Shown one piece after another: positions 2,299 to 30,657 of a DNA stretch of 32,664 nt. Under the pieces are notes generated by a model. It was not told the DNA's origin. It saw only the letters and a list, made by a program, of their open reading frames with translations, and did no database searches. The translations under genes were made by a program, and so were the position numbers. The DNA is from a virus: the UHGV virus genome UHGV-2169520. One strand, 5' to 3'. Within the stretch, counting starts at the first letter, position 1. Each line of letters starts with the position of its first letter.

Positions 2299-2332
2299 CA
2301 TGTCTGTGAGATAGGGTGCCTTATCGACCTTA

Positions 2333-3412: not shown

Positions 3413-3505
3413 AAAAATGCCCGCTTTCCGGCGGGCAAAAAACAATTTAGGTCATATTTCATCATGGATAATTAAATACTTGCCCGTGGTTGCGGGAAAG
3501 TATCT
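3411..3505 (-). ncRNA. Candidate small RNA unit B5 (body class gamma), immediately downstream of ogr
   Basis: -35 TTGAGA (3535-3540) starts 15 bp after ogr stop; 17-bp spacer; -10 TAGATT (3512-3517); terminator hairpin 3419-3436 plus U7; also the likely terminator for ogr. Confidence 0.35.
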
Positions 3506-3554
3506 GCCGTTAATCTACTTGCCTTATGATGTCCTCTCAACCTGATTATTGTTC

Positions 3555-3806
3555 TTAAATATCAAGATTAATCTGAGTATTCCCCCTGTGAGATCCCGGA
3601 AAATCTTCCCACGGTATCCGCTCTGTACCCTGCGGCGACGGGGCGCGTTTTGATGTGAATTTGTTAAAACCCTCCAGTGTGGTAAAGCCGATCCCGCATT
3701 CGAGGTTATTGCACTGGTAGTACTTCAGGCGAACTGTGCCTGAATCATTTTCATTGCGACTGGTGCGGATACGTGCGGATGCACCGCATAGGGGACAACG
3801 GAACAT
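3555..3806 (-). CDS. ogr: Ogr/Delta-family zinc-finger late-gene activator
   Basis: MFRCPLCGASARIRTSR...YYQCNNLECG: C-x2-C...C-x4-C zinc finger matching P2 Ogr; SD AGGAGA 4 nt before ATG. Confidence 0.9.
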   Translation of the reverse strand: MFRCPLCGASARIRTSRNENDSGTVRLKYYQCNNLECGIGFTTLEGFNKFTSKRAPSPQGTERIPWEDFPGSHRGNTQINLDI

Positions 3807-3849
3807 GGCTTCTCCTTATCTGGCTGAGTGGAGATGGCTCATTTTAATT

Positions 3850-4941
3850 TTATCCGCCTGAATCTGCTATCCATTCGGGGATTTTCGCTTCCAGCTCCAG
3901 TTGTGTGGTGAAGCCGCTTTCATCTATGATGTGCTCCACCCTGGCAATAATCCAGTCCTGATTGTCCACCTCGCTTTTAAAACCTGTTACCCTGCCGTGC
4001 ATTTCGGGGTACAGGTCGGCACGACCCCGTGCCAGAGTGATGGAGAATGCCGCTGCTCCCCGCTGTAACTCCTGCCACTTTGCCGCAGCTGCACGTCGTG
4101 CGGTTTCTTCATTCTGGTAAGTCCTGCGCAGAACGTAGACGTTCCCTTCCGCGCCTTCCATGTAATCACCCTCCCGGCTGCTGCTCTTCTCCTGTTTCTG
4201 TTTCCCGGCTTCCCTGCGTCGCTTCACGTTCACTTTTTTCTTTTGCCCGAACTTCAGATCGAGCCAGTGCGCCCGGACCCCCGTATACGCATCACGGTCA
4301 GCAATGCGAAAGCGGTGACTGTCGCCGCTGCTGCGGGTAATGGCGAACGAAGGCAGGGCTCTTCCGTCCGGCCCGGTTCCGCCACCCGGCAGAATGAATA
4401 ACAGGCTGCCGTTTTTTACGGTGGCAATCGCACCCAGCATTTCAGCCATGCGGGTCAGGAAGGATATATCGCTCTCTTCGGTCTGGTCAGCGTGGTCAAT
4501 TTCGATATCCATGAGGATTTCGCTTATCTGTGTCTTCAGGCCGTAGCGGTGAGCGATGGCTGACACAACCTGTTTTACGGTCACGTCGTGCCAGGATACC
4601 TCCCGCCTCACGTTGAACTCTTCCCGAAAATCTGCGCTGCTGGCGGTGATGATCAGTTTATCTGGAGGTCCTTCCCACGCAACCTCATCAACGACGTAGG
4701 TGCCCTTGTTAACCAGTGATTCTCCTCGCCAGCCAATCATCACTCTCAGGCGTGCGCCACGTGGTGGCAACTGTAACTGCCCGTCCGTATCGTCAAGGGT
4801 GAGGGTGACGCGGTCTGCCTCAAAGGCCCGGTTATCCGTCAGGGTCAGCGTCATGAGTCGCTCTGTGAGGTTTGCCAGTGTGTTGTTGTTGATGGTGATG
4901 TCGATATCCGGTGACGGAACGGTAACTGACAGCTCTTTCAT
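3850..4941 (-). CDS. D: Tail protein D
   Basis: P2 gpD-like over full length; start set at ATG 4941 (SD AGGAGAG) rather than the ORF-track start 4977, which lacks an SD. Confidence 0.85.
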   Translation of the reverse strand: MKELSVTVPSPDIDITINNNTLANLTERLMTLTLTDNRAFEADRVTLTLDDTDGQLQLPPRGARLRVMIGWRGESLVNKGTYVVDEVAWEGPPDKLIITASSADFREEFNVRREVSWHDVTVKQVVSAIAHRYGLKTQISEILMDIEIDHADQTEESDISFLTRMAEMLGAIATVKNGSLLFILPGGGTGPDGRALPSFAITRSSGDSHRFRIADRDAYTGVRAHWLDLKFGQKKKVNVKRRREAGKQKQEKSSSREGDYMEGAEGNVYVLRRTYQNEETARRAAAAKWQELQRGAAAFSITLARGRADLYPEMHGRVTGFKSEVDNQDWIIARVEHIIDESGFTTQLELEAKIPEWIADSGG

Positions 4942-5005
4942 GGTGTTCTCTCCTGGTGCGTTCTGTAATGGTTTCATGCACCGTAGCGGCGTTGAATGGC
5001 TGTTT

Positions 5006-5029
5006 TGTTGTCGCTGTCAGGAGACAACA
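5006..5029. promoter_or_regulatory. Candidate Ogr-type activator site in the divergent D/FI intergenic region
   Basis: TGTTGTC-N10-GACAACA, containing TGT-N12-ACA (5009-5026), centred ~55 bp from plausible start sites on either side. Confidence 0.45.
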
Positions 5030-5102
5030 TCAAAGGGGTGAGATTACCGCGTGTGTGGGTAATGATTACGCAAAATCAACCAGCCAGACAAGGGTGAAAC
5101 AT

Positions 5103-6386
5103 ATGAGTGAAACACGCTTTCATGGTGCGCGCGTAAGGGAAAGTACCGGCCTTGCCACCGCCATTAATGATGTGGATTCCAGTGTTATTGGTATTGTGGC
5201 TACGGCAGATGACGCGGATGAAACTCTGTTCCCGCTGAACAAACCCACACTGCTGACCCGCGTCAGTGATGTGCTGGGTAAGGCCGGCACAAAGGGGACG
5301 CTTTACAAATCGCTTAAGGCTGTCGCCGACCAGGTGAGCACGAAGGTGATTGTGGTGCGCGTTCCTGATGCCAGTTCTCAGGGCGCCCCGGATACAGGAG
5401 TTACATCATTCGGTCATCTGGATCCTGAAGACAGGGCATTTTTTGGTATTGATGAGTCTGAAGATGCACATCCTGTATACCCACACAAAACGCAGGACCA
5501 GTATGTCATTGGTGGCACGGATGGCGACGGTAATTATACCGGTATGTATGCACTTCTGATAGCTGAACAGGATGATGCCATCGGTTACCGTCCGCGCATC
5601 ATCGCAGCTCCCGGACTGGATACTGAAGCTGTCACAAAATCCCTGTGTGTAATTGCAGAAAAACTTCGCGCATTTGTCTACGCGGGCTGTCACAACTGCA
5701 AGAAGCCCGCTGATGCAATCAGCTACCGCGCCAGATTTAACGAGCGCGAACTTATGCTGCTCTGGCCTGACTTCATCGCCTATAACCCGAAATCCGGCGC
5801 TAATGAGGTCTTCCCGGCTGCGGCGTACGCCTGCGGTTTACGTGCACGTATTGACCACGAACAGGGCTGGCATAAATCGCTGTCCAACGTGCCGGTAAGA
5901 AATGTGCTGGGTATTTCCAGCCCGGTGTTCTGGTCCCTTCAGTCCGAAGACAGCGATGCCAACAATCTCAACAACAAGGAAATCACTACCATCATTTGCC
6001 GTAACGGTTTCCGCTTCTGGGGCAACCGTACGCCGGAAACGAAGGCGTATATCTTTGAGGTGTACACGCGAACCGCTCAGGTGCTGGCTGATTCCATTGC
6101 GGAAGCGCAGTTTGAAACGATTGATGCCCCGCTGACCCCTGCTAATGTGAAAGACGTGTTAAGCGCAATTCGCGCAAAACTGGATGCGCTGGTTACGTCA
6201 GGACGTCTCATTGGTGCGGAGTGCTGGTATGACGTGGTGGATAACAGCACCACGGAACTTCGTCAGGGACGCGTGCGTATCCGCTACAAGTACACGCCCG
6301 TTCCGCCGCTTGAGGATATGGAACTTTACCAGACGTTTACTGATGAATTCTTTGGTCCTGCATTTGCGACGCTTGGAGGTGCTTAA
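5103..6386 (+). CDS. FI: Tail sheath protein FI
   Basis: MSETRFHGARV.. P2 gpFI-like; ATG 5103 preferred over upstream in-frame start. Confidence 0.9.
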   Translation: MSETRFHGARVRESTGLATAINDVDSSVIGIVATADDADETLFPLNKPTLLTRVSDVLGKAGTKGTLYKSLKAVADQVSTKVIVVRVPDASSQGAPDTGVTSFGHLDPEDRAFFGIDESEDAHPVYPHKTQDQYVIGGTDGDGNYTGMYALLIAEQDDAIGYRPRIIAAPGLDTEAVTKSLCVIAEKLRAFVYAGCHNCKKPADAISYRARFNERELMLLWPDFIAYNPKSGANEVFPAAAYACGLRARIDHEQGWHKSLSNVPVRNVLGISSPVFWSLQSEDSDANNLNNKEITTIICRNGFRFWGNRTPETKAYIFEVYTRTAQVLADSIAEAQFETIDAPLTPANVKDVLSAIRAKLDALVTSGRLIGAECWYDVVDNSTTELRQGRVRIRYKYTPVPPLEDMELYQTFTDEFFGPAFATLGGA

Positions 6387-6904
6387 TGGCCGTACCAAAA
6401 AATCTCAGGGTGTTCACGCTGTTTACTGACGGGGTGAACCAGATTGGCAGGGTGACCGGCTTCACGCCCCCCAAACTGACCCGTAAAACGGAAGCCTATC
6501 GCGGTGGTGGTATGGCCGGCGCGGTGAATATCGACCTTGGTCTGGATGACGGCGCGCTGGATGCGAGTTTCACCATGGGCGGGCCGACCCGCGAACTGTT
6601 CCTTAAGTACGGCGGCACGATCGACGGTACGCTGCTGCGCTTTGTCGGTGAGTACTACAACGATGAAGAGCAGAGCGACCTGTATGAAATTGAGCTTCGC
6701 GGCCGCGTGACGGAAATTGATACGGGGGAGGCAAAACAGGGTGAGGTCACGTCTCACACCTATGCGGTCAGGAGTACCTACTACAAACTCAGCATTAACG
6801 ACCGTCCGGTGCTGGAGATTGATTTACTGAACCACATCGAACGCAAGGACGGCAAAAACGTCTTCCCGGACCGCGTGCGCTCGGCGATTGGTCTTGGTGG
6901 TTAA
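6386..6904 (+). CDS. FII: Tail tube protein FII
   Basis: MAVPKNLRVFTLFTDGVNQIG.. P2 gpFII-like; start overlaps FI stop (TAATG). Confidence 0.9.
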   Translation: MAVPKNLRVFTLFTDGVNQIGRVTGFTPPKLTRKTEAYRGGGMAGAVNIDLGLDDGALDASFTMGGPTRELFLKYGGTIDGTLLRFVGEYYNDEEQSDLYEIELRGRVTEIDTGEAKQGEVTSHTYAVRSTYYKLSINDRPVLEIDLLNHIERKDGKNVFPDRVRSAIGLGG

Positions 6905-6954
6905 TGTTTCCCACGGCGGCGCGCGGCGTCGCCCCCTGATTTGAGGTTTTATGC

Positions 6955-7317
6955 ATGAAAGAAAATCCGGTTGTTGCCCCTGTTACTGACGGTGCTGATG
7001 CGGCGGACGTGACCAGTGAGCGCGGCGTGACGCTGAAAACGCCCCTTGTGCTCGGTAACAAAAAAATCACGTATGTGGAAATCACGCCTGCTGTACAGCA
7101 GGCCGGTTCACTGCGCGGGCTGTCACTGCTTGACGTGCTGAACATGAAAACGGACGCGATGTTTGAGTTACTCCCGCGCGTCACTTCGCCGCGACTGGAC
7201 GAGGTTCTGCTTAAGCGCATGGGGTCCGCTGATTTTATTCAGCTGTGCGGGGTGGCGGTTAATTTTTTGGCCGGTCAGGACTCTGGCGGGAAGAGCGGGG
7301 CGGCGACGGCAGGCTGA
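6955..7317 (+). CDS. E: Tail assembly chaperone E
   Basis: Position between tube and tape measure; ends 50 nt after the T6G slippery site. Confidence 0.8.
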   Translation: MKENPVVAPVTDGADAADVTSERGVTLKTPLVLGNKKITYVEITPAVQQAGSLRGLSLLDVLNMKTDAMFELLPRVTSPRLDEVLLKRMGSADFIQLCGVAVNFLAGQDSGGKSGAATAG

Positions 7318-7481
7318 TAACCGTCGTGCCCTTTGAGCACATTGAAGACTTTGTGGCGGATATCGCCGTTATTTTCAACTGGTCTCCCGCTGAAATCTTC
7401 CTGATGGATCCCGGCGAGGTGGTCGCCTGGCGTGAGCGGGCGGCCCTTCGCAGCGGGAACGCAGAGCATGAAAACGCTTGA
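6955..7481 (+). CDS. E+E-prime fusion made by -1 frameshift at TTTTTTG (7263-7269)
   Basis: The -1 frame after the slippery heptamer stays open to TGA 7479-7481, overlapping the start of T, as in P2. Confidence 0.6.
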
Positions 7482-10400
7482 TATACGGGTCGCCTTCAGC
7501 GCTGTTGACAGGCTGACCCGTCCCACCGAAAACGCCCGTCGCATGATGGGCCAGCTTGGCGACTCCATACAGAGAACGCAGGGTGCGATCAAAAACCTGG
7601 AACGCCACGCCCGTTCATTTGATCGCGCCCGCGAGGCTGCAAACAAGGCCGGAAACGGCATTGTCAGGGCGCAACGCCAGTTAAGCGCACTTCAGCAAAT
7701 TCAGCGCGCCGGAACCGTGCTGTCTGACAAACAGAAAAAGCTGATGAATGATTTGAGCCTCAAACTTGAGCGTCTCAATGAGGTCCGTGCGCGTGAAGTT
7801 CAGCGAATGCGCGAACTGGGTGGTGAGCTGCGGCGCCACGGTATTGCGCTTTCCGGCAGTGACAACACCATTCAACAGGCCATACGGCGAACACAGCAAT
7901 ACAACGACCAGCTGGAACGCGAACGGCAGGCGCTGGCACGTGTCACGCAGGCACGCCAGCAATATTCCCGTGCTCAGGAGACGGCGGGAAAACTTAAAAC
8001 GGTCGGACTTACGGCGGTTGGTACGGCGGCGGCAGGCGGCTATGCGGCCGGACGTTTCCTGCAACCGGCGGTCAGTTTTGGTAAGGAGATGTCGCGCGTC
8101 CAGGCGCTGACCCGTATTGACAAAAACAGTCCGCAGTTTAAGGCGCTGCGCGAACAGGCCATTAAGCTGGGCTCTGAAACGCAGTTTACCGCCGGTGATG
8201 CTGCCAGCGGTCAGGCGTTCCTTGCCATGGCCGGCTTCACACCACAGGCCATACAGGCGGCGCTACCCGGCGTGCTTGATCTGGCAATGGCTGCAGGGAT
8301 GGACCTGGGACAGACTGCCGATATCAGTTCGAATATCCTCACACAGTTTGGTCTGTCCGCTGACCAGATGGATCGCGTGGGTGACACGCTGGCCGCCACC
8401 TTCACACGAACCAATACGGATCTCCGTTCGCTGGGTGAAACCATGAAGTACACGGGGCCGGTTGCAGCTTCACTTGGCCTGTCCCTTGAACAGGCGGCAG
8501 CCATGACGGGTGTCCTTGGCAGTGTGGGGATCCGTGGAAGTGATGCAGGTACGGCGCTGCGTGCCAGTCTGTCACGTCTGGTTGATCCGCCGAAGGCCGC
8601 TGCAATGGCACTGAAAGAGCTTGGCGTGGAGACGCAGGATGCTTACGGGAACATGCGCCGGATGGAAAATATCCTGAATGAGCTGTACCAGGCCACCCGA
8701 AAATACGGTAATGCCGCGCAGGTCTCCTTTTTCAGGGCTATTGCCGGGCAGGAGTCCTATGTTTCCCTGATGAATCTTGTCACTGCGGCGGGGGAAAATA
8801 ATCTTCCCCGTCTTACGCAGGAGATTGAACTGGCCACCGGGGAACTTAATCAGACTGCCCGTGTTATGGCTGATAACCTGGACGGTGACCTGAAATCACT
8901 GAACAGCGCATGGGAAGGACTGCGTATCCGTGTCGCTGACCTCGTTGACGGGCCGCTGCGTTCTGTCACGCAGTCGTTCACCCGGGTTATTGCGAAAGTC
9001 ACCGCGCTGGCTCAGGCGCACCCTGAACTGACAAAACAACTGCTGATTGCCGGTGGTGTACTGCTGGCTGCGGTTGCGGCCATGGGGGCGCTGTCACTTG
9101 CCACTGGTGTGTTGATGGGGCCGCTGGCAAAACTGCGTCTTGGGTTTGCCCTGCTGACCGGCACATCCGGCCTCGGTCGTGCGCTGCCGTTACTGACGCA
9201 GCTGCGCGGCGTACTCGGTGGTCCGCTGGGCGGTATCGGTGGCTGGCGCGTGCTGTTTGTCGGTATCACCTCCGGTGCCGGACGGTTTGCTGCACTGCTG
9301 GGCGTAGTTGCGGGGCGGCTTCGTGGTGTGCAGGCGGGACTTGGCGCGCTGCGTGGTGGTCTGCTGGCTGCGTTCACTTCACCTGGCGGCGCACTGATTT
9401 CACTGGGGCGCGGTATCGGAATACTGGCGCTCAGACTGTCAGGTCTGCCCGCACTGTGGGGGATGGTGAGTGGTGCGGTGGGCGCACTTGGCGGGGCGCT
9501 GGGTTTTCTGTTAAGTCCGGTGGGCCTTGTGGTGGCGACACTGGTCGGTGCGGCAGTGCTTATCTGGCGGCACTGGGACCATTGTTTGAGTATGTCGGGC
9601 AGACAATCGGGCGTGTGTGGCAGTGGTTCGTGGATTTGTTCGCGCCGGTAAGCACAACAAAGGATGAGCTGGACAAGTGCACGGAAGCCGGGCGGACGTT
9701 CGGGCAGAAGGTCGGGGAGTTTATCAGCAATCTGGTGACCGGTCCGGTTACGCTGCTGATTGACTCATTAACCCGGGTGCTGGAAAAACTCGGGCTGATT
9801 CCGTCAGCGGTTGAGCGCGCCCGGAAAAAAGCGGAAGAACTAAAACAGAAGGAGTTGCTGAACGAGAAAGCTGCCATGCTTCTGGCGGATGTTAACGTCA
9901 TTAATCCGCCGAAAAAGGACGAGGATAAAAAAGACGGCGAAAAACCCAAAGGGGGGCAACCACCCCTGACGGGGGAGAATACCGGCACTATGCGCCGCCT
10001 GAACAAAATCGTCGATAACACCGGTGGTCTGCTGGATGAGGCGAAACAGGCGAAAAAACGCGCTGGTCCCGGCGATATTATCTTTAAAAACCTGCCGGAA
10101 GCGCTGGCCGTTCGTGGTGAGTGGAAGGAGGAACGCTTTAACCGCGCAGCTTCCCTGTTACCGGGTAGTGTCAGTGAGCCACCTGTCAGACTGCCGCAGG
10201 TGCCGTCGGTCAGTGTGCCTTCGTTGCCACCGCTGCCAGCGCCACCGCCTGTCAGTGTTTCGCCGCTGATATCCACCACGGCGAACGTGTCGCCGGTCGT
10301 GAAGCCGGTGGTGTCCGTGAATAATGTGCCGGTTATTCCTCCGGTCGTCCGTCCGGTACTGTCCGGTAATATTACGCCAGTGGTTCCGCCGGTGATCAAA

Positions 10401-10694
10401 CCGGTTATGACTCACGATGTCATGCCGACGTTCTCCCCGCTAATGACACCAGTGATGGCGGCAACATCCCGTCCGGTGGTTGAGGCTGTGCGCCAGCCCA
10501 TATCCCCCGCATCGCCCCGACCGCGCCAGAGTGAGGCGGCACCATGGGGATTAACTGGCGAACTGCATATTCACCTGCATGATGTTCACACGCAAAACCC
10601 GCGCGAACTGGCAAAAATGGTGGGTGATGCCGTCCGTGCGGAAATGGAACGCCGTATCCGCCAGACAGTCGGTAGTTTCCGTGACAGAGATTAG
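7468..10694 (+). CDS. T: Tail tape measure protein; reading frame broken near 9566-9572 (possible pseudogene or sequencing indel)
   Basis: P2 gpT-like coiled N-terminal half and Gly/Ala/Leu-rich segment; two overlapping ORFs (7432-9651 frame 1, 9456-10694 frame 3); protein sense switches at ..AAVLIW / ALGPLFEYVGQ. Confidence 0.85.
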
Positions 10695-10705
10695 GAGTAC
10701 CTCGC

Positions 10706-11194
10706 ATGATGATGATTTACGGCATGTTTGTTTTTGAGTTGCGTACGCTGCCTCATCAACAACTGCAACATAATAAAACCTGGCGCCACGTTAAAAATGA
10801 ACGCATCAATCGTTCGGCCAGCTGGCAGTATATCGGGGCGGGTGACGACCAGATCACGTTGTCCGGTGTGCTTTATCCCGAAATTACCGGCGGTGAGGTT
10901 TCCCTCAGCCTTTTAACGACGCAGGCTTACACTGGTCGCCCATGGCCGCTGATTGACGGTGTGGGGCAGATATACGGCATGTATGTGATAACGGCTGTCC
11001 GCACAACGCGAAGCGAACTTGACCGCCACGGTAAGGCCAAAAAAATTGAGTTCACTGTCAGTCTGGAACGCTGTGATGAGGATTTGCGGGAGAGTATGGC
11101 CTCGTCGCCGGTGTCTGATATGCTTTCGGGAATGAAAGGGAAGTTAAGTTCGGTCTGGAATACCACAGTAAGCGGCGTAAATGATCTGATGTGA
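10706..11194 (+). CDS. U: Tail protein U
   Basis: MMMIYGMFVFELRTLPHQQLQ.. matches P2 gpU; SD AGGAG upstream. Confidence 0.9.
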   Translation: MMMIYGMFVFELRTLPHQQLQHNKTWRHVKNERINRSASWQYIGAGDDQITLSGVLYPEITGGEVSLSLLTTQAYTGRPWPLIDGVGQIYGMYVITAVRTTRSELDRHGKAKKIEFTVSLERCDEDLRESMASSPVSDMLSGMKGKLSSVWNTTVSGVNDLM

Positions 11195-11264
11195 AGGTAA
11201 TGTGCCGCATTCTTGCGGCACCTGCATGATGAATTATTTATGAATGCCCGTTCCTTTTCCCCGC

Positions 11265-11876
11265 TCATTCCATTTCTGGTGGTGTTTCCGGCCAGCTTAT
11301 TTCAGGCTCCGTGCTGATATCCAGTGCGTTCAGCTCGTCGATATAATCCAGCACGGCATTCAGTTTTGCCGTTTCTTCTGGTGTCAGACTGCGACCTGCC
11401 CGCAACTTAAGGTTGATGAGGTCGATGGACTTCATCGCCTGATCCACCCGTTCCTTGCGTTGCTGTCTGGCAACCTCCAGCTCTTCGGCTTGCTGCCGTT
11501 CTGTATCGGTTACCCACGCCTCACCGTTCCAGGTATCCCATGGTGTGGCAGGCTGTTTTGTCGTTGTCCCTTCCGGGTAGTCACCTGGTTGGGTAATCTG
11601 GACCGGATTACCGTTCTCTGTGCTGTATACCGTCTCTCCACGATGATCGGGGACATACTCCCACCCGTCCAGCGTGGACGTCCGGCAAATCACGTAACCC
11701 GGCATTGCCTCTGGCGGGGCATCGGCGCATGAATGTGCCGGGGTACCCACCCCCAGGGCGAGATACTCCACAGAGGATGAGGTGTATTCCCGGGTTTCCT
11801 CATCATAGTGATATACAGTGATATCGCCTGCGAAAGTGGCGATACCGTTTTCATCCAGAACTGCAGTGTTACTCAT
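11265..11876 (-). CDS. G: Tail fibre assembly protein
   Basis: P2 gpG-like; start overlaps H stop (TAATG). Confidence 0.85.
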   Translation of the reverse strand: MSNTAVLDENGIATFAGDITVYHYDEETREYTSSSVEYLALGVGTPAHSCADAPPEAMPGYVICRTSTLDGWEYVPDHRGETVYSTENGNPVQITQPGDYPEGTTTKQPATPWDTWNGEAWVTDTERQQAEELEVARQQRKERVDQAMKSIDLINLKLRAGRSLTPEETAKLNAVLDYIDELNALDISTEPEISWPETPPEME

Positions 11877-19796: not shown

Positions 19797-20564
19797 TTAA
19801 CCACGTTTCGCCTTCGCTTTCGCCTTCGGCGTCGTGGTCTGTTCTCTGGTTGTATCTTTCTGTGCCGCAGGCTCCTGTGCGGCAGCGGCTTCATCCTGTC
19901 CGGCCTTTTTCAGGGCCCGTGAAAGCGTGGCAATCTCACGTTTTACCCCCGCATTCGGGTTAAGGTGCATTGCCTCACGGAACAGCTTCAGACTCACCGC
20001 CATGCTGTCGGCATCGGTCAGGCCACGACGGGCAAAGGCGCATGCCTTGCACAGCTTGGCGCGGACCTCATCGGGCATGTCCCGGTTCGCGACAATTTGC
20101 CAGAGGGTGTCCAGCGGTTCGATGTAGCCGGACAAATCGGCGTGTGCATCCGTTCCGGCCTGTGTCAGAACAGGGTTGCAGATTTCCTCGGTCAGTACCG
20201 TGGCTGCCGTACGCCCGAAGTTGTCAGGCATCGTGAGGTTGTGGCGAACCACATAATCCCCGATGCGCAGTGCAAGCGCCAGGTCGCCACAGTCCACGGC
20301 CCACACCATNNNNNNNNNNNCCTGCTGTCCGCCGTCGGCTTCCAGCGTGCCGTCTATCCAGCCTGCAAAACCCGGCAGCATTTCACGCTTGAGCGCGGCC
20401 TTTGCCGCTTTTGCCTGGACGCCCTTTATGCGTTGCTGTGCCAGGCGCAGACGGTGAAGGACCTGCTCATGAGCCGTGCGGGCCACGATATCCTCGTTTT
20501 CTGCTGCCGTTCCTGCCCGTAAAGCCATCACGTGCTGGAAATGAGCCTGTGCCGGTGTCAGCAT
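19797..20564 (-). CDS. M: Terminase small (endonuclease) subunit M; contains N gap
   Basis: P2 gpM-like; N run 20310-20320 inside the gene. Confidence 0.8.
   Translation of the reverse strand: MLTPAQAHFQHVMALRAGTAAENEDIVARTAHEQVLHRLRLAQQRIKGVQAKAAKAALKREMLPGFAGWIDGTLEADGGQQXXXXMVWAVDCGDLALALRIGDYVVRHNLTMPDNFGRTAATVLTEEICNPVLTQAGTDAHADLSGYIEPLDTLWQIVANRDMPDEVRAKLCKACAFARRGLTDADSMAVSLKLFREAMHLNPNAGVKREIATLSRALKKAGQDEAAAAQEPAAQKDTTREQTTTPKAKAKAKRG
20310..20320. other. Assembly gap (11 N) inside terminase gene M
   Basis: Run of N. Confidence 0.95.
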
Positions 20565-22725: not shown

Positions 22726-24477
22726 ATGATTCAGGATACATTTGTTCGCCAGCGGGCACGCCAGCTGTACTGGCAGGGTTACCCTGTTGCGGAAATTTCC
22801 CGCCTTATGGGTATCAACCAGAACACGATCCATTCGTGGAAAAAACGCGACCAGTGGGATGAGACGCCCCCGGTTCAGCGTGTCACGCAGTCCATGGATG
22901 CGCGACTCATTCAGCTCACGGAAAAACAGAATAAAACAGGCGGGGACTTTAAGGAAATTGATTTGCTGACCCGTCAGCTTAAAAAGCTGCATGACGGTCT
23001 GCCGGATGAGACGGCAACAGGAAAGAAAGGCCGGGCGAAAAAACGCAAAAATCATTTCACGCCGGAACAGATCGCGGCGCTGCGGGAAAAAATTACCGAC
23101 AGGCTGGCCGGACACCAGCGCAAATGGCTTGATGCTATCGGTGCCTGTGAGCGTGCCGGAATTACTGACAGGATGATCCTGAAATCCCGCCAGATTGGGG
23201 CGACCTGGTATTTTGCGCAGGAAGCGCTGCTGATGGCGCTGCGTGACGATGTGGCACAACCTTACCAGCGTAACCAGATTTTTTTGTCTGCGTCTCGTCG
23301 TCAGGCGCTCCAGTTTAAAAGCATTATTCAGAAGGCTGCATCTGAAGTTGATGTGGAACTGAAAGGGGGCGATAAAGTCATCCTCTCCAACGGTGCAGAG
23401 CTGCATTTTCTCGGCACTTCTGCGGCCACCGCGCAAGCGTACACAGGGAATCTGTATTTTGATGAGTTTTTCTGGACGGGGCGTTTCGCAGAGCTGCGCA
23501 AGGTGGCTGCTGCTATGGCAACGCTGGATGGTTTGCGGTGTACCTATTTTTCCACGCCATCAAGTGAAACACATGAGGCGTATGCATACTGGAACGGCGA
23601 TCACTGGAATGAAGGGCTTCGTACTCATAAACGTCAGCATTTTGATGTGAGCTGGAATGCGCTTCATAACGGCCTTATCTGTCCTGACTATATCTGGCGG
23701 CAAATTGTGACGCTGGAAGATGTGGTCAGTCAGGGATGGACGTTAACCAACATTGACAAAATCCGGCGCAATAACACTGAAGACGAGTTCCGCAATCTCT
23801 ACATGTGTGAATTTGCTCGCGAAGGGGAATCGGCATTTAACCTGAATATCCTGATTGGCTGCGGTGTTGACGGATACGACGAGTGGCCGGACTGGAAGCC
23901 GTTTGCACCGCGTCCGATGGGGAACCGCCCTGTGTGGATTGGGTACGACGCCAACGGCAGTAGCGGGAACGGTGACAGCGGGGCGGTTGTCGTGGTGGTG
24001 CCGCCAGCCGTACCGGGCGGGCGTTTTCGCACCGTGGAGACGCGGCGGGTGCAGGGGCTGGAGTTTGAGGCGCAGGCGAAGGTGATTGAAGAGTTCACCT
24101 TTCGCTATAACGTTGAGCATATCGGTATTGACGTAACCGGCGGTCACGGGGATGCGGTGTATCAGATTGTGAAGCGCTTTTTTCCGGCAGCCATTCCCTA
24201 CACCTTCACCCTGTCATCAAAGCGCACGCTGGTTCTGAAGATGCTGCAGCTCATGCGCGCCGGGCGGTGGGAGTACGACCGCAGCGAGCGCGAACTGGTG
24301 AGCGCCTTTAACGCGGTACGCAAAACAAAAACGCAGGCCGGATTTATCACCTACGAAACAGATCGCGCAAGAGGCGTAAGCCATGGCGATCTTGCATGGG
24401 CCACCATGCTGGCCGTTATCAACGAACCTGTCGGCGGTGAACATGATGCCGCCCCCTTCAGTGTTACGGAGTTCTGA
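22726..24477 (+). CDS. P: Terminase large (ATPase) subunit P
   Basis: P2 gpP-like over full length. Confidence 0.9.
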   Translation: MIQDTFVRQRARQLYWQGYPVAEISRLMGINQNTIHSWKKRDQWDETPPVQRVTQSMDARLIQLTEKQNKTGGDFKEIDLLTRQLKKLHDGLPDETATGKKGRAKKRKNHFTPEQIAALREKITDRLAGHQRKWLDAIGACERAGITDRMILKSRQIGATWYFAQEALLMALRDDVAQPYQRNQIFLSASRRQALQFKSIIQKAASEVDVELKGGDKVILSNGAELHFLGTSAATAQAYTGNLYFDEFFWTGRFAELRKVAAAMATLDGLRCTYFSTPSSETHEAYAYWNGDHWNEGLRTHKRQHFDVSWNALHNGLICPDYIWRQIVTLEDVVSQGWTLTNIDKIRRNNTEDEFRNLYMCEFAREGESAFNLNILIGCGVDGYDEWPDWKPFAPRPMGNRPVWIGYDANGSSGNGDSGAVVVVVPPAVPGGRFRTVETRRVQGLEFEAQAKVIEEFTFRYNVEHIGIDVTGGHGDAVYQIVKRFFPAAIPYTFTLSSKRTLVLKMLQLMRAGRWEYDRSERELVSAFNAVRKTKTQAGFITYETDRARGVSHGDLAWATMLAVINEPVGGEHDAAPFSVTEF

Positions 24478-25532
24478 TGAGCAGAAAAAATAAACAACGA
24501 CGTACGAACGCCCGCGCAGCGCAGGGCAGCCTTGCGGATTCCCTGCGAAGCGACCCGACACTAAGTGCCTTCACGTTTGAAGGACCTTACCGGCTGTCAG
24601 GGGCCGACCTGCTGGACAGCATGTACTGCGCCGACAACGGGCGGTGGTTTGAAACGCCCGTTGACTGGTACGGACTGGCACGGGCTGCCCGCCAGACGTC
24701 CTGGCACCAGTCGGCGCTCAGCTTCAAACGTAATGTGCTGCTGGGCTGCTATATTCCACATCCTCTGCTGTCCCGCCAGGAGTTCGCCGGGGTGGCGATG
24801 GACTGGTTTGTGTTCGGTAATGCCTGTCTTGAGCTGCGGCGCAACATGCTTGGCGAACCGCTGGCCCTGCGCCGGGCGCTGGCGAAATACATGCGACGTG
24901 GCAGCGATATGAAATCATGGTGGTATATACAGGAAGGACAGGAAGAGTACCGCTTTCGTGAGGGGACGATATGCCACCTGATGAATCCTGATATCAACCA
25001 GGAGATTTACGGGATGCCGGATTACCTGGGCGGCCTGCTGTCTGCCAGCCTGTCACATTCCGCCGATATCTTCCGCAAGCTCTACTACGATAACGGCTCA
25101 CACGCGGGCTGTATTGTCTACATCGGTGCGGCGCAGGTTGACCGTGAAAGCATGGAAAAACTGCGGGAAACACTGCAAAGCGCGCGTGGTGGCGGGGCGT
25201 TTAAAAATCTGCTCATCCACGCGGCGGGAGGTGGTAAGGATGGCGTACAGATTTTGCCGTTTCAGCAAATCACCGCAAAGGATGAGTTCATGAACGTCAA
25301 GGCTGCATCGCGTGATGATGTGCTGTCCGTGCACCGTGTACCGCCGCAGCTGATGGGGGCCATGCCGGGTGAGAAGGGGTCATTCGGGGATGTGGAGAAG
25401 GCAGCCCGTGTGTTTGCCATTAACGAACTGATGCCCGTCATGGAAGCAATGAAACACGTCAACGACTGGCTGGGCGAAGAGGTGATCCGTTTTAACCCTT
25501 ACGCACTGTTAGACACCCAGCCCATATCCTGA
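24477..25532 (+). CDS. Q: Portal protein Q
   Basis: P2 gpQ-like; start overlaps P stop. Confidence 0.9.
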   Translation: MSRKNKQRRTNARAAQGSLADSLRSDPTLSAFTFEGPYRLSGADLLDSMYCADNGRWFETPVDWYGLARAARQTSWHQSALSFKRNVLLGCYIPHPLLSRQEFAGVAMDWFVFGNACLELRRNMLGEPLALRRALAKYMRRGSDMKSWWYIQEGQEEYRFREGTICHLMNPDINQEIYGMPDYLGGLLSASLSHSADIFRKLYYDNGSHAGCIVYIGAAQVDRESMEKLRETLQSARGGGAFKNLLIHAAGGGKDGVQILPFQQITAKDEFMNVKAASRDDVLSVHRVPPQLMGAMPGEKGSFGDVEKAARVFAINELMPVMEAMKHVNDWLGEEVIRFNPYALLDTQPIS

Positions 25533-25559
25533 CGCGCTTCGCTTGTCTGCTGCTTCGCC

Positions 25560-25582
25560 GGGGCATAAAAAATTTATGCCCC
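25560..25582. terminator. Hairpin between convergent Q and the 237-codon cargo gene
   Basis: GGGGCATAAA-aaa-TTTATGCCCC, 10-bp stem; no clear U-tract on either side. Confidence 0.3.
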
Positions 25583-25598
25583 GACTCTCCAGCTCTGC

Positions 25599-26312
25599 TT
25601 AACGAAGTGCTGATGGCGCTCGCTTTTTCAGGTGATTAGCGATGTGCTTTTTCATGTGCATAACAACATCGCCCCAGGCTTCTTCGCTGGGTTTATTGAT
25701 AAATACGCGAACAGAAATATCGTCTTCCACCCGGACTCTCAGAGACACCCGTTCCGCATCTACTGAATATAATTCAAGTGCAATAACCACGCTTACCGGG
25801 TAGCTGCTGTCAGATGACTTAACCCAGGTTCGCACGGCCATGCGGAAAATATTGTCTGGTGCAGATGCGATATTGTGGACTGAAAGAGGACTAAAATCCG
25901 CCGCTGTCTTACATGGCAAGCCTGTCTCCACGTAGCGGTGCAGGTCGCCATCATCGTCTTCCCAGTACATGGATGGAAGCCCCAGCCATTCTTCATAGAA
26001 ATCAATCAGCCTTGCCGCTTCATCCCGCAAAATTTGAGCTGCCTCAGCGCGTTTTTCTTCAGCTTCACGATTGATCTGGCATAAATCATTAAAGTGGCTC
26101 ATGACATTATCCTCTTTTGAGTTGATGCCTGCCGCTATTCTGACTTTGCCCGGGTTCTCCTGCAAGCTGGTTATTCCTTCAGATAATTTCACAACATCTC
26201 CAACCTTGTAGCCATCATCGCCGGGCGGATGCTTACGCAACCCCGCAACTCTGACGACATATTCTCGCTGCCTCAGTGCGATTTTGACGGCCTTATCTTT
26301 CACCCCCATCAA
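25599..26312 (-). CDS. Hypothetical cargo protein (237 aa, or 167 aa from ATG 26102), no recognisable domain
   Basis: Long ORF; internal ATG 26102 has strong SD AAGAGGA, first ATG has none; own transcription unit. Confidence 0.6.
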   Translation of the reverse strand: MMGVKDKAVKIALRQREYVVRVAGLRKHPPGDDGYKVGDVVKLSEGITSLQENPGKVRIAAGINSKEDNVMSHFNDLCQINREAEEKRAEAAQILRDEAARLIDFYEEWLGLPSMYWEDDDGDLHRYVETGLPCKTAADFSPLSVHNIASAPDNIFRMAVRTWVKSSDSSYPVSVVIALELYSVDAERVSLRVRVEDDISVRVFINKPSEEAWGDVVMHMKKHIANHLKKRAPSALR

Positions 26313-26528
26313 ATCAAGCTTTTACGTCTTTTTTACGCTCAGCGTGAGAAATACAGCCATTCTGTTGTGTCGCTGCAACATCGTTCAGGGAATGCTATTT
26401 ACCCCCTGAAACGCGGGCTGTTCCCCCGTCACCTGCGCGCAGAAAAAGGCCTTTTTTCGTGCACGCACGGATCCCCGACGGATCCAGACGCCACACGGGC
26501 CGGAAGGGCAAAAAGTCGTTCAAAAAAA

Positions 26529-26555
26529 TTGTGCAAATTTGTGCACTATTGTGCA
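26529..26555. repeat. Three direct TTGTGCA repeats at exact 10-bp spacing (candidate regulator binding sites)
   Basis: TTGTGCA at 26529, 26539, 26549, between the operon terminator and the 237-codon gene. Confidence 0.4.
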
Positions 26556-26564
26556 TTGAAATAA

Positions 26565-26587
26565 ACGCCCTGGAGGAGGGCGTTTTG
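26565..26587. terminator. Bidirectional intrinsic terminator ending the A-linked cargo operon
   Basis: ACGCCCT-GGAGG-AGGGCGT hairpin then TTTG on plus strand; U-rich tract after it on minus strand. Confidence 0.6.
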
Positions 26588-26592
26588 CTCAT

Positions 26593-26994
26593 CTATTTAT
26601 AGCCTTGCCCCTTACTGGCCAGCGCCCTGATGGCAGGGCGTGCCAACACCATATTTTGGCAATGATGAATTGCCCGGCAAAATTCATCTCTACCCATTGG
26701 ATGCTCAACTGGCAATGTAAAATACAGGTTCCATGCATCGCCTAAAAGTTGGGCTATCTTTTGTTCTTCAGATGTCAGCAAGCGGTACTCCCCATCCTTG
26801 ATGTAGTCACTTGTGCCATCGACCTGCTGTTCTGCAATGTGGAAAGCACCTATTGGTTTTGCTTCCAGCGATGCCAAAGCAATCCGTGCCAGTTTTTCCG
26901 CTTCTTCGGCTGGCAGTACAACGTTGCTACCAGGTCCGTATGTTTCGCGCCACTGCCTGATTGTCAGTAGTCGCTCTTTGGTTATAGTGGTCAT
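26593..26994 (-). CDS. Hypothetical cargo protein (133 aa)
   Basis: SD GAGGA 7 nt before ATG; ATGA overlap with upstream gene stop. Confidence 0.65.
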   Translation of the reverse strand: MTTITKERLLTIRQWRETYGPGSNVVLPAEEAEKLARIALASLEAKPIGAFHIAEQQVDGTSDYIKDGEYRLLTSEEQKIAQLLGDAWNLYFTLPVEHPMGRDEFCRAIHHCQNMVLARPAIRALASKGQGYK

Positions 26995-27200
26995 TTGTTA
27001 ATCCTCAAAACTTTATGCCCGGGCGCAAAAGCACGAGTTTTGTCTTTGCTTATTCGCCAGCCATCCTTACGCGCCTCTTTTGCACAGCCAGTCCATGACG
27101 TACCGATATATTCACCGAAGTCTGGCGTTTGATATTTACCATTTGTACACTGGCGACAATCACAATAGAGATGCATGGTGTAACTTGCGGCAATAGCCAT
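26991..27200 (-). CDS. Hypothetical Cys-cluster protein (69 aa), possible metal-binding
   Basis: SD AGGAGA 5 nt before ATG; ..HLYCDCRQC.. and ..TGCAKE.. Confidence 0.6.
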   Translation of the reverse strand: MAIAASYTMHLYCDCRQCTNGKYQTPDFGEYIGTSWTGCAKEARKDGWRISKDKTRAFAPGHKVLRINK

Positions 27201-27201
27201 A

Positions 27202-27516
27202 TCAGTCTCCTTTGATGCCAGTGTTTACAACCTGACAAGCCTCTTTGAGCACCCAGTCAACAGCGTCTTGCCATGCTCCGGTTTCGACTGGCGGATTCTC
27301 ACGCTTTACCAGTTCATAGAAACGTACTGCTCTAACCAGTCCATCTGACGGTTTTGCCTGTAGTGCAGCCTGAGCTATGCGGTATACCTGGAGCATACAG
27401 GCGTCGTTGATATCCATTCCGAATGGAATATCTGATGACTGAGATTCCACATCTTCCAGCCTGGCAATTTCTTTACGTAAGAAGCCTTTCAGTTCCTGCT
27501 TCTGTTTCCTGTTCAT
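27202..27516 (-). CDS. Hypothetical cargo protein (104 aa)
   Basis: ATG 27516 with SD AAGGA at 7 nt; the ORF-track start is a TTG five codons upstream. Confidence 0.6.
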   Translation of the reverse strand: MNRKQKQELKGFLRKEIARLEDVESQSSDIPFGMDINDACMLQVYRIAQAALQAKPSDGLVRAVRFYELVKRENPPVETGAWQDAVDWVLKEACQVVNTGIKGD

Positions 27517-27527
27517 ATATTTTTCCT

Positions 27528-27722
27528 TCAAAGTTCGGTTCGCTGACAGGGTTTCTCTTTACGGCAGACAATGACGCTGCCTTTGCTCGAGTCGGTGATT
27601 GTTACCGTGCCGTCATCACACTGGACAATGACAACGGTGTTGCTCTTTTTCGCTACGCAGTTCGGCGTGGCTGATTGTGCGAATGGCGCGAAAAACAGCA
27701 GAAAAAGTAATATTCTGCTCAC
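27528..27722 (-). CDS. Small secreted 4-Cys protein (64 aa; predicted signal peptide)
   Basis: GTG start 27722 with SD GGGAGG at 8 nt; VSRILLFLLFFAPFAQS-ATPNC.. signal-like leader; Cys-containing mature part of ~47 aa. Confidence 0.55.
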   Translation of the reverse strand: MSRILLFLLFFAPFAQSATPNCVAKKSNTVVIVQCDDGTVTITDSSKGSVIVCRKEKPCQRTEL

Positions 27723-28150
27723 TGTTGTTTCCTCCCGTTCTGTGCTGGTCTGGCGAATGAATTGCGTTGTGGTGAAAAGACCATTCGCGCCAGCGCGGCC
27801 TTGTGATTGACTGTGTTCAGTGTTCTGGCCAGTCCGCCGTTGTGCCTGCGTGTCCGCTCTTCGTGATATCTCTGCATGATTTTCCCGGCAGGCGTGCACG
27901 GCTCCGGTTCCTCCGGCGAACGGCGCGGACGAATGACGACAGTCCAGCTATGGCTCTCGCTGCCCGGCCGCCTGTTGAGTATGTCGGCGATGGTGGTCTC
28001 CGTGGTGCGATCGGGGCTGACTATCGTGATTTCCAGCTCGTCGCCCGGTTGTGGCCTTGTGGCAGGCCTGAACAGTGTCAGCACCGGCATACGCTGGCGC
28101 ATGATGGCCTCAAACTGTGGGCGCTGCATGGTGCAGCAAAATCGCGTCAT
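27719..28150 (-). CDS. Hypothetical basic cargo protein (143 aa), coupled to gene A
   Basis: ATGA overlap with A stop (28147-28150); SD GGAGG; Arg-rich C-terminus. Confidence 0.6.
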   Translation of the reverse strand: MTRFCCTMQRPQFEAIMRQRMPVLTLFRPATRPQPGDELEITIVSPDRTTETTIADILNRRPGSESHSWTVVIRPRRSPEEPEPCTPAGKIMQRYHEERTRRHNGGLARTLNTVNHKAALARMVFSPQRNSFARPAQNGRKQQ

Positions 28151-30657
28151 GCTCCCGCCTCCACTGGCTGCTCTGTGATGATGTGACGGGCTGACTCATC
28201 CCAGTACGCTGTTCCCCCGTTATCCAGACGCACACGGGCACCGTTACGCACGGAGATGATGGCCGCGTCAGGCAACTGCACACCCAGCGCATCAAGTTCG
28301 CGGGCGATTTGCGTGTCCGTCGCGGTATCCGCAGGCACGACAATCCCCACCCTTACAGGGGTGTCAGATGCCGGTGTGGTGTCGTTTTGTCCGGTTTTTG
28401 CGCCCGACGGCTGATTTTTAATCTGATTACGCAGTTTTCTCCGATCGCCCCTGCTTAACGTATTCAGCCAGCTTTCCAGGTTCTCTTCGGGAAGCGTCAG
28501 TCGTCCGGGGTCCTGCCTGTTTTCTGGTCCGTGATTGTCTGTTTTTTCATCCCGGGGACAGTTATTGCCACGAGTCCAAGGGGCGACGGGGTCGCCCTGA
28601 AGGTCAAAACCCTCGCCCGTGCGGTTGTCTGGTGTTGTTTCTTTTTTAACCAGTTTCCACTCGTCCGGATGGGTGCATATGGTGTACCGCTCTCCGAGCG
28701 ACGGGGCGCAGATTCCGTAGATACGTTGAGGGAACTCACCGTAGTCGTTGGCTTCGTCTGCGGTTTCGTATGCGGTGCGGACCAGATACTGGTTGCGCGG
28801 AATGAGCACACCACCCTGTTTCATGATGTAGGTGGCAAAACATCCCACATCTGCGGCAGCCATAATGGCGTCAATATCGTCATGATCGAGGTGCTTCGGT
28901 GATGCCGGGTTGCGCTCCATCTGGCTTGCAAGGCGGCGGAGTTCACGCCATACCTGGCGGGGCGGAATGCCGAAAAACTGGAACTGACGGATGCGGTGAA
29001 GGCTTGCCCAGGCAATGGCGTTCTCCACGGTTTCCGCCATGGTTTTCCCGGATTCCTCATCAACGTAAGGTTTTCCGGTTTTCGGATCATTGTTGTGGAA
29101 AGCGCTGGCGTCCAGGTTCTTACCGATATAGGTTGCGATATAGCTTGCCGGTGTGCCTTTTTCCGGGTCTATCTTCTCGCATTTAAAGCGCGGTGAAATA
29201 TCGTCCCCCAGTTCGTGGCGATCTGATTTAATTGCTGCTTCGCGCATAATTTCGATGATGCGCTCTGCGTTCTCCGGGGAAGTGAATACCAGCATATGCC
29301 AGTGTGGCGTGCCGTCATGGTGTGGCTCAGCGGTTCGCACGCCGTACCAGCCCAGCCCCTCTTTTTTTATTTTTTTTCTTACGGCTGCGAAGAAGTCGTA
29401 AACCAGATAATCACTGGCATCTCGTACTGTGGCACCGTTGTATTTCGGGTTCAGGCTGCCGTTCTCGTTCACGCTGTGAAAGCGGGAAGGGGTGGTTACT
29501 GTGATGAAGAATGCGACGTCAGCCCGTAATTCGGCCACCATCTCCATCCCTCTGACGCAGACCATCATTTCATTGCGGCGGTTGCGTGGATTACCCAGGC
29601 CAGCCCAGTACACGTCCTCCAGACTCAGGCGCTCGCCGTCTTCGTTTTCAATATCCCAGCTTTTGAGAAAGTCACGGGTGCGCTGGCGCTTCTCGCGGAA
29701 CTCCAGTAGTGACTCATGGCTGATATAGGGGGATTGTTTACGTGACACTCTGCCGGCGGCGCGCAGTAACTCCTCCCGCCAGAGATCGGCGACGTGGCGT
29801 AACTGGTTGTTCCACCAGGTCGCGCAGGTGATGCGCAGTACCGCACCCGGAACCCGTTCAGGGTCCGGCGGTGTGCGTCGGTTGTGCCTGATTTCGAGTT
29901 CCGGCCAGTATGGCGGGACCACGCCCAGAATTAAGGCTGTGCGTGCCACCTTCTGGTAGGCCAGCAGCCAGATAACCGGGCTGTCATTATCCTTGCCTGT
30001 CCGTTCAAGAACTTCATCACATATGCGTTCAAATTCTGCGGCGAATGCCTGGGCTGTCAGTGTGGCGATGCGCTGGATTTCGTCACGGGTGAGTTGCGGC
30101 AGTGTGAGCAGTTCTTCAAGGCGATGGCGCACGACGGTGGTTTTGAATGCCGGCGTTGCAAAGCGGTCGTTAACCCTTTCAATACGTTTCAGGCGCGCAC
30201 GCAGTCCACGGCGAACGAAATTATCGGCCACGTATGCGCTGTTGTTTTTTACACCTTCACTGCGGGCACTTTGCTGTTTCCGGTTCAGTCGTGCCAGATC
30301 ACGGATCAACACACTGGCAAGAAACGAGGGCAGGGTGCGAAGTTCGGCTATCGCCTCCGATACCGCCGTTGGCGGATTTTCGCGTCTGTGTCGTGCCAGC
30401 TTATCCAGCCTTATCTGCCGCTCTTCGTCCCGGTGAAGGTGTGAATTAATTTGCTTACCTTTGTCCGTGGTTGTCAGGAAGGCCACGGTTTCTTCATCCA
30501 GCCGGGCCTCAGTGCGAATGTCTTCGGTGAGGTAGTCACGGATTGCCCGTTGTAATGCGGTTGGCTTCTGCGGTAATGCTCTGCCGAATGTCTCAGGATC
30601 AATAACCGGCAGCGGGGCGTTCCACGGGTACGCCAGGTGCGTGTGGTGATGGCTCAT
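28147..30657 (-). CDS. A: Replication initiation endonuclease A
   Basis: ..YGVRTAEPHHDGTPHWHMLVF.., ..WASLHRIRQFQFFGIP.., ..YGICAP.. blocks as in P2 gpA. Confidence 0.9.
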   Translation of the reverse strand: MSHHHTHLAYPWNAPLPVIDPETFGRALPQKPTALQRAIRDYLTEDIRTEARLDEETVAFLTTTDKGKQINSHLHRDEERQIRLDKLARHRRENPPTAVSEAIAELRTLPSFLASVLIRDLARLNRKQQSARSEGVKNNSAYVADNFVRRGLRARLKRIERVNDRFATPAFKTTVVRHRLEELLTLPQLTRDEIQRIATLTAQAFAAEFERICDEVLERTGKDNDSPVIWLLAYQKVARTALILGVVPPYWPELEIRHNRRTPPDPERVPGAVLRITCATWWNNQLRHVADLWREELLRAAGRVSRKQSPYISHESLLEFREKRQRTRDFLKSWDIENEDGERLSLEDVYWAGLGNPRNRRNEMMVCVRGMEMVAELRADVAFFITVTTPSRFHSVNENGSLNPKYNGATVRDASDYLVYDFFAAVRKKIKKEGLGWYGVRTAEPHHDGTPHWHMLVFTSPENAERIIEIMREAAIKSDRHELGDDISPRFKCEKIDPEKGTPASYIATYIGKNLDASAFHNNDPKTGKPYVDEESGKTMAETVENAIAWASLHRIRQFQFFGIPPRQVWRELRRLASQMERNPASPKHLDHDDIDAIMAAADVGCFATYIMKQGGVLIPRNQYLVRTAYETADEANDYGEFPQRIYGICAPSLGERYTICTHPDEWKLVKKETTPDNRTGEGFDLQGDPVAPWTRGNNCPRDEKTDNHGPENRQDPGRLTLPEENLESWLNTLSRGDRRKLRNQIKNQPSGAKTGQNDTTPASDTPVRVGIVVPADTATDTQIARELDALGVQLPDAAIISVRNGARVRLDNGGTAYWDESARHIITEQPVEAGA

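Follow-up and report, generated by a model that had tools for sequence, protein, structure and literature searches.

The stretch of DNA analysed here (UHGV virus genome UHGV-2169520, 32,664 nucleotides, in the following called the window) was recognised as a P2-family prophage of Escherichia coli, P88-like and of the Xuanwuvirus type, and the analysis concerns the interval at 25599-26592, which follows the portal gene Q. In an earlier note, made by a model from the sequence alone, this interval was described as a separate 237-codon cargo gene, convergent with Q and preceded by its own upstream region of ~280 bp, in which direct repeats and a palindrome were thought to mark the binding site of a dedicated regulator. 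We consider it quite likely that the interval holds two unrelated things side by side, namely the packaging site (cos) of the phage at 26412-26555 and an accessory-gene insert at 25596-26179.

Among sequenced phages, P88-like Peduoviridae (Xuanwuvirus and relatives) come closest, with ~89% identity in megablast searches, and the 1.3 kb around the finding match a chromosomal E. coli prophage, carried for example by strain ECCNB12-2 (NZ_CP033635), at 100% identity. The RefSeq neighbours at this identical locus are gpM, a P2-family capsid protein, the GPO scaffold, terminase, portal and a replication endonuclease. In the window, gpM (terminase small subunit) is encoded at 19797-20564, and the large terminase gene P (22726-24477, plus strand) stands directly before Q (24477-25532, plus strand, 351 residues), which was identified by a Pfam Phage_portal match (E value 3.4e-18) and by the RefSeq annotation of the identical locus. 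A GPA-type replication gene lies at 28147-30657 on the minus strand.

The cos region and its four-site repeat array

The cos region of the phage is present with or without the cargo gene. The GC-rich segment at 26415-26440, which had been noted as loosely resembling P2-family cos ends, was found in place and the resemblance was borne out. Within it lies a predicted 19-nt cohesive end, the equivalent of cosN (26415-26433, minus strand, 5'-GGTGACGGGGGAACAGCCC), which was assigned by homology to P2. It is identical to GGCGAGGCGGGGAAAGCAC of P2 at 13 of 19 positions, and its position and orientation relative to Q match the annotated cosL/cosR of P2. Q ends at 25532 in the window; in insert-free relatives 188-322 bp lie between Q and the 19-mer, and in P2 ~170 bp. 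The comparison with experimentally defined cos sequences, proposed in the earlier note, was also favourable, as the predicted end opens with GGTGA like the experimentally determined cohesive end of phiRSA1 (GGTGAGGCGGGGTCCAAC, quoted in PMC5694545).

Cos regions were collected by an exact-match scan of viral contigs with CCCCGTCACCTGCGC, which gave ~100 true cos regions. Conservation figures refer to 86 distinct related sequences, for which 26424-26438, within the cos core, was the search anchor. With this limit, the predicted 19-mer is at least 90% conserved, and three blocks reach 90-100%: the cos core, the T-run with the proximal GTGCA, and the A-run with the three distal repeats. Just past 26555 the conservation drops to 20-40%. 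BLAST homology to other phages also ends at 26555, directly after the third repeat, where variable cargo starts.

Next to the 19-mer, a repeat scan returned the perfect 14-bp palindrome AAAAAGGCCTTTTT with a T-run (26443-26456), exactly where the earlier note had placed it. Its version in relatives reads AAAAA(A)CGCG/GCGCGTTTTTT(T), and palindrome and T-run occupy the place of the GC hairpin and TTTT found after cos in P2, 186 and P4. The proximal repeat copy TTCGTGCAC (26456-26464, plus strand; at least 90% conserved) has its core at +35 from the CCCC of the cos core, from which all repeat offsets were counted, and at +36 in relatives. A 55-bp cos core was reportedly described by Ziermann & Calendar in 1990. 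The conserved flank of helpers and satellites, at which this core ends in TTTTAATGCA, has its counterpart here in the T-run and the GTGCA at +35/+36. The spacer between the proximal and distal repeats contains two copies of ACGGATCC, 11 bp apart (26467-26485, plus strand); the pair is kept only in the P88-like lineage (ACGGATCCTTGACGGATCC) and could be a host-factor or bending site. At the right edge of the conserved region stand an A-run and three phased copies of TTGTGCA (26522-26555, plus strand), whose starts at 26529, 26539 and 26549 confirm the exact 10-bp spacing reported before. TTGTGCA occurs three times in the 32.6-kb window, always in this array, against ~8 scattered copies expected, and the triple pattern appeared in none of 100 shuffles.

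Read in the orientation of the window, P2 has the order ...GCGCGCA-GTGCTTTCCCCGCCTCGCC-hairpin-TTTTAATGCAC-(~70 bp)-TTAATGCAatcTCATGCAcccttGAATGCA, and the window has GGGCTGTTCCCCCGTCACC-TGCGCGCAG-palindrome-TTTTTTCGTGCAC-(~65 bp)-ATTGTGCAaatTTGTGCActaTTGTGCA. Another register, in which CCCGTCACCTGCGCGCAG is aligned with the Q-side flank CACCGTCAGCGCGCAG of P2, was rejected: it would put the cohesive end in the non-conserved AT-rich palindrome, and it is also contradicted by three loci (L153-155) that have GCGCGC on both sides of a P2-type 19-mer. The cos region did not fold unusually as a single strand (z = -1.8), and an Rfam search of 25000-28200 gave no match. In one viral contig (L108) cos reads ...CGCGTTTTTTGTGCACTATTGTGCAGC..., the DNA from the proximal TTTGTGCAC to the second distal TTTGTGCAC being deleted, which looks like recombination between repeat copies, possibly in a packaging-defective prophage.

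The repeats keep their geometry across lineages. In P88-like phages, Enterobacter phage phiT5282H and an Edwardsiella tarda prophage, the proximal copy is at +36 and the distal copies are at +108, +118 and +128. The first three of these offsets are the same in P2, 186 and P4, where the last copy is at +130, +127 and +131, respectively, and the window, whose T-run is 1 bp shorter, has +35, +107, +117 and +127. The spacers between the repeats are unrelated in sequence among lineages and the offsets are nonetheless fixed; the 72 bp from the proximal to the first distal copy are close to seven helical turns. The motif switches by lineage, in proximal and distal copies alike, and is ATGCA in P2, 186 and P4, GTGCA in P88-like phages and GTTCA in the E. 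tarda prophage. All four copies are present in the satellite P4, whose only general homology to P2 is the 55-bp cos core (PMC9594776) and which is packaged using the P2 terminase (PMC9122126). A GTGCA-type cos core with the repeat array was also found in the contig IMGVR_UViG_3300011919_000061, which has no portal gene beside cos and looks like a satellite mimicking the P88-type packaging signal. At 2198-11841 of this contig there are genes for a P4-type primase-helicase (Zn ribbon, Toprim, DUF927), an integrase and Ash, and it also carries a metallo-beta-lactamase-fold cargo gene and a P2-family major capsid gene.

Because the offsets from cos are fixed across lineages, the motifs are matched within each lineage and the full array is present in P4 and in the satellite-like contig, the repeats were read as part of the packaging signal. 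As far as sequence comparison can tell, they are most likely packaging-site elements that serve as terminase docking sites. The terminase (small subunit gpM and large subunit gpP) would dock on the same-face array and nick the 19-mer, and docking and nicking are proposed to work as with gpNu1 of lambda at cosB/cosN. Virion DNA would then carry the repeats at its right end and the cargo gene at its left end.

Two readings without a packaging function have to be weighed against this one. In the earlier note the phased repeats and the palindrome were operators of a dedicated regulator controlling the cargo gene, and it is true that the repeats are real, non-random and helically phased, that they lie on the upstream side of the gene, and that a standard scan gave no strong consensus promoter nearer to it. 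However, slot occupancy was counted in 96 loci with both a portal gene and a GTGCA-type cos, and the 83 of them with an empty slot keep the repeats at 90-100% conservation; P2, 186 and P4 keep them too. The conservation in related prophages that the note had proposed as a check does exist, but it follows cos and not the gene, and the supposed own upstream region is the conserved cos region. The distance of the repeats is fixed to cos, not to any gene. They are also ~430 bp from the ATG at 26102, with the predicted cleavage site between, so that gene and repeats would come to lie at opposite ends of the virion DNA molecule. Family members in other lineages keep a promoter-like motif ~60 nt from their ATG regardless of the DNA farther upstream. 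On balance, operators of this kind are extremely improbable. It is also unlikely that the repeats are a promoter or operator for the variable cargo right of cos, comparable to the P2 old-tin promoter, and not packaging signals. The old-tin mRNA of P2 starts at 33424/33426, ~35 nt past the third repeat, and TTGAATGCA can supply a -35 by our own reading; in many relatives, moreover, the cargo just past the third repeat reads rightward. On the other hand, the window has an intact array although the genes on either side point towards the repeats and stop at a terminator (26563-26585); the array of P4 is downstream of psu, at the genome end; and the offset from cos is constant while cargo and orientation vary. 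A dual role of the array, in packaging and as an occasional -35, is possible.

Several points count against the packaging interpretation. The cleavage position is a prediction from homology, and the linear record of a relative, Xuanwuvirus P88_4B11 (NC_049391), starts ~75 bp right of the predicted 19-mer, within the cos spacer at the equivalent of window ~26510, which may be an arbitrary linearisation or a hint that the cleavage assignment is off. In P2, 186 and P4 the third repeat is phased less strictly (spacing 9-13 bp), and in P2 it overlaps the -35 region of the old promoter by our own reading of the annotation. A transcriptional role of the repeats in some phages is therefore conceivable. 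An Ogr/delta-type late-promoter dyad (TGT-N12-ACA) was considered for the repeats and rejected, as a single near match (TGT-N12-ACT) was found, TGT is missing from the P2, 186 and P4 versions, and the site is not the start of a late operon.

Right of the array, the hairpin AAACGCCCT-ggagg-AGGGCGTTT (26563-26585) forms the terminator of the leftward accessory genes ending at 26593 and is not conserved outside the cargo variant of the window. The 133-residue open reading frame (ORF) at 26593-26994 (minus strand) looks composite: its residues 1-76 match phrog_60/3323/660, its residues 72-133 match phrog_13916 (labelled DNA ligase), and RefSeq annotates just 26860-26994 of it, as an incomplete pseudogene. 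In relatives the cargo right of the third repeat varies (L005 4238-6766, L006 4385-4981, L009 1996-2514, L012 4684-5482), examples being a three-gene cassette (459, 114 and 269 residues), genes for a DUF4760 protein and for a membrane protein, and a toxin-antitoxin-like pair of the Gp49/HTH kind. Such variety is in keeping with the gpA-gpQ hotspot, published as a cos-proximal region rich in anti-phage systems (PMC9122126).

The insert and the boundaries of its gene

In megablast, P88 and a dozen relatives match the window at the end of Q and again from ~26180 onward, with no match in the interval between. The junctions were read base by base, with L001 and L002 as references. P88 has CCAGCTC-CTGTATCAGT-CAGATAATTTCAC where the window has CCAGCTC-(25596-26179)-CAGATAATTTCAC, and at the insertion point the 10 bp CTGTATCAGT of P88 thus stand in place of 584 bp. 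The insert (minus strand) contains the gene from its ATG at 26102 to its stop at 25599, with 77 bp upstream of the ATG and 3 bp past the stop. The cargo status that the earlier note gave to the gene is upheld by this presence/absence polymorphism, which has precise junctions in otherwise collinear phages.

The open frame at 25599-26312 on the minus strand, convergent with Q, was found as described, and so was its internal ATG at 26102 with AAGAGGA upstream. Within this 237-codon frame, residues 70-236 alone match a family, phrog_5091 (profile positions 1-163 of 164, E value 3.5e-52). The 167-residue form encoded at 25599-26102 (minus strand) matches the same family at full length (protein 1-166, profile 2-163 of 164, E value 3.1e-52). 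All homologues found have 158-183 residues and start at the equivalent methionine (MSHF/M..TY). The Shine-Dalgarno sequence AAGAGGA (26110-26116, minus strand), 7 nt before the ATG, is kept in homologous loci (GAGGATAA / GAGGTGAG).

The 70 codons ahead of this ATG belong to the backbone and are shared with P88, which has no cargo gene. According to the P88 annotation, 26180-26303 (minus strand) is the remnant of a small backbone ORF, the homologue of P88 gp22 (42 residues, GTG start). Most P88-like loci have an intact copy of the gp22-type ORF (~42 residues, VKGKAVKIALRR...VVKLSD*; 3183-3311 in L001), located between the Q hairpin and cos, but several have a frameshifted or truncated one, and it is doubtful whether the ORF is a gene. 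In the window this small ORF lost its stop codon through the insertion, and the frame therefore reads into the cargo gene, which creates the apparent 237-codon ORF. Translation of the full frame as a genuine N-terminally extended fusion is very unlikely. The frame is indeed open from the TTG at 26312, PGAP annotates products of 236 residues in the identical genome and 197 residues in another, and a 234-residue form is the representative of the identical protein cluster. Yet PGAP gives 167 residues for an 87%-identical copy, the upstream starts have no Shine-Dalgarno sequence, and MSHF marks the beginning of the family profile and of every other homologue. Moreover, the backbone ORF that is homologous to the extension is closed by a stop codon, whether or not the phage has a family member, and both the Shine-Dalgarno sequence and the conserved promoter-like motif fall inside the extension. 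The 236/237-residue RefSeq product is a read-through annotation artefact and the gene has 167 codons. The earlier note had allowed for a two-part frame, and of its two candidate starts the downstream one, with the Shine-Dalgarno sequence, is the real one.

The cargo gene is predicted to carry its own weak sigma-70-type promoter, located within the insert (26137-26165, minus strand; -35 TTGCAG at 26165-26160, 17-nt spacer, -10 CAGAAT at 26142-26137). Of 18 distinct upstream regions from family members, 11 have a motif of the form TTGNNN-(16-18)-[CT]ANAAT at 59-66 nt before the start codon, compared with 1% of shuffles, and the motif spans subfamilies of ~31% identity. Other observations speak against this promoter: its boxes match the consensus at 3/6 and 4/6 positions, a consensus promoter scan missed it and found no minus-strand promoter upstream of the cargo gene, and the motif is absent from a close homologue locus (L006) and from short metagenomic contigs.

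Between Q and the cargo gene, the hairpin GGGGCATAAAAAATTTATGCCCC (25560-25582), which is conserved in P88 and has no clear T-run, is probably a shared two-way transcription stop, as predicted from its sequence. This hairpin region (GCTGCTTCGCCGGGGCATAAA...TTTATGCCCC) was seen to travel with phrog_5091 genes. It was found in L157 at ~4830-4900, upstream of a 174-residue variant of the gene, and in L150 at ~4860-4950, in a lineage whose portal protein is just 29% identical. This suggests that the Q hairpin is part of a mobile module or a recombination point.

Distribution and possible role of phrog_5091

The distance from portal gene to cos is 188-322 bp in the 83 loci with no gene there and 784-935 bp in the loci with phrog_5091. 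In 5426 complete E. coli genomes, the 167-residue type was found in 32 and the 174-residue type, which also belongs to phrog_5091 (E value 1e-67), in 397, so that one or other variant is present in ~8% of them. The P88-type cos backbone occurs in 1151 of these genomes, and ~37% of such backbones (32 + 397) carry a family member. Members down to 31% identity lie between cos and a convergent portal gene in 10 of 11 viral contigs with a portal match, 170-400 bp inward from cos; among these are members of 31% identity beside a P2-type cos (GGCGAGGCGGGGGAGCAAGC) and, as a further case, the E. tarda prophage. In the exception (L150), an Ogr-like gene separates the family gene from a distant portal gene. 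The 174-residue variant is present in four sequenced P88-like E. coli phages and is annotated as hypothetical in all of them. No phage record matched the window protein in a tblastn search, a scan of species-representative genomes found no relative, and the supplementary tables of Rousset et al. 2022 contained none of three searched protein accessions. It has been reported that the cosL-Q interval is a foreign-gene pick-up site in P2-like phages (PMC5694545, citing Dodd & Egan 1996, Nakayama et al. 1999). The accessory family phrog_5091 is common, uncharacterised and position-faithful.

The protein was modelled with AlphaFold2 from 28 aligned family members (predicted local distance difference test 91, predicted template modelling score 0.85). 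The model is a confident one and shows a soluble α/β sandwich in helix-sheet-helix order, the N-terminal helix being 38 residues long, the sheet antiparallel and the C-terminal helix 21 residues long. L40, W47, Y57 and G61 are invariant, and such positions are hydrophobic or structural; no catalytic signature was found among the conserved residues and no membrane segment, and a net-charge check for DNA mimicry showed the proteins to be mildly acidic only (isoelectric point ~5-6). Pfam, NCBIfam and PADLOC returned no match for the 167-residue form, the 237-residue form or the 28 family members, and the PADLOC-DB 2.0 defence models returned none for the window protein and six divergent family members. 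A profile search against PDB sequences gave nothing below an E value of 0.4, no viral predicted structure was matched by Foldseek at E <= 0.001, and the phrog_5091 profile has no function label.

As a tentative suggestion, the 167-residue protein might be a small binding or inhibitor protein that is made from the prophage and directed against other phages, satellites or host defences. Judged from its place beside the predicted cleavage site, the gene could be the first one inward from the left cohesive end and be read inward from there, and its product could be a small factor of the binding type for counter-defence or exclusion, active from the prophage or soon after the DNA has entered the cell. 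It is doubtful that the protein is not a conflict factor but has a role tied to its position, such as aiding packaging or the portal, or is a neutral passenger kept by flank recombination. This reading would agree with the strictly kept place beside portal gene and cos down to 31% identity, with the presence of a member at ~37% of the P88-type cos sites of complete E. coli genomes, and with the absence of a known defence-system match. However, the gene is dispensable, since most relatives, including the plaque-forming P88, do without it; its promoter motif is of the sigma-70 type and not of the late type; and the L150 gene does not adjoin the portal gene.

Significance and comparison with known systems

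For annotation, these results mean that an apparent intergenic regulatory region is a packaging site. The picture of the P2-family cos is extended past the classical 55-bp core to a four-site array with invariant geometry, common to helpers and satellites, and this matters for the design of P2/P4 cosmids and transducing particles and for the specificity between helper and satellite. phrog_5091 occupies a position where conflict genes tend to gather. We know of no defined binding sites for the small terminase subunit (gpM) of the P2 family. Our combined proposal, for which we claim somewhat less than even confidence, is that the RYGCA four-site array is the gpM docking platform of the whole P2 family and its satellites and that phrog_5091 is a position-locked left-end gene. 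If such a docking platform exists, the motif variants ATGCA, GTGCA and GTTCA would set which helper packages which satellite or cosmid. The general picture of P2 biology is unchanged and holds little surprise for a P2 specialist; two by-products are worth noting, the invariant four-site geometry and the common position-faithful gene family.

The closest known systems are the cos sites of P2, 186 and P4. Like them, the site in the window lies between portal gene Q and the right-end accessory region in the same orientation, has a GC-rich 19-mer with 13/19 identity, and continues with a hairpin or palindrome and a T-run, RTGCA at +36 and three phased RYGCA at +108, +118 and ~+128. It differs in having GTGCA in place of ATGCA, an unrelated spacer, GCGCGC on the other side of the 19-mer and an AT-rich palindrome that replaces the hairpin; compared with P2, its cleavage is predicted only and the gap from Q to cos is ~890 bp instead of ~170 bp, because of the insert. 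In lambda, cosB consists of the sites R3-I1-R2-R1, which are bound by the small terminase subunit gpNu1 beside cosN. Short direct repeats set next to the nicking site across ~100 bp position the terminase for nicking in lambda, and the array of the window is proposed to work alike, although there is no sequence relationship and the array of the window is at the right genome end and not beside the terminase genes.

The cargo gene is comparable to the genes gained in the cosL-Q moron slot, such as ctx of phiCTX, ORF1-4 of phiRSY1 and the retron replacement beside cos in 186-related prophages. The cos-proximal presence/absence pattern is the same, and the gene is likewise small and self-contained with its own promoter-like motif. 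Unlike in those cases, the cargo here is a single family, phrog_5091, which recurs in this slot in divergent forms across phages, and not a varied assortment. As a whole, the interval is made up of known kinds of elements: a P2-family cos site and an accessory gene in a cos-proximal hotspot, plus an annotation artefact.

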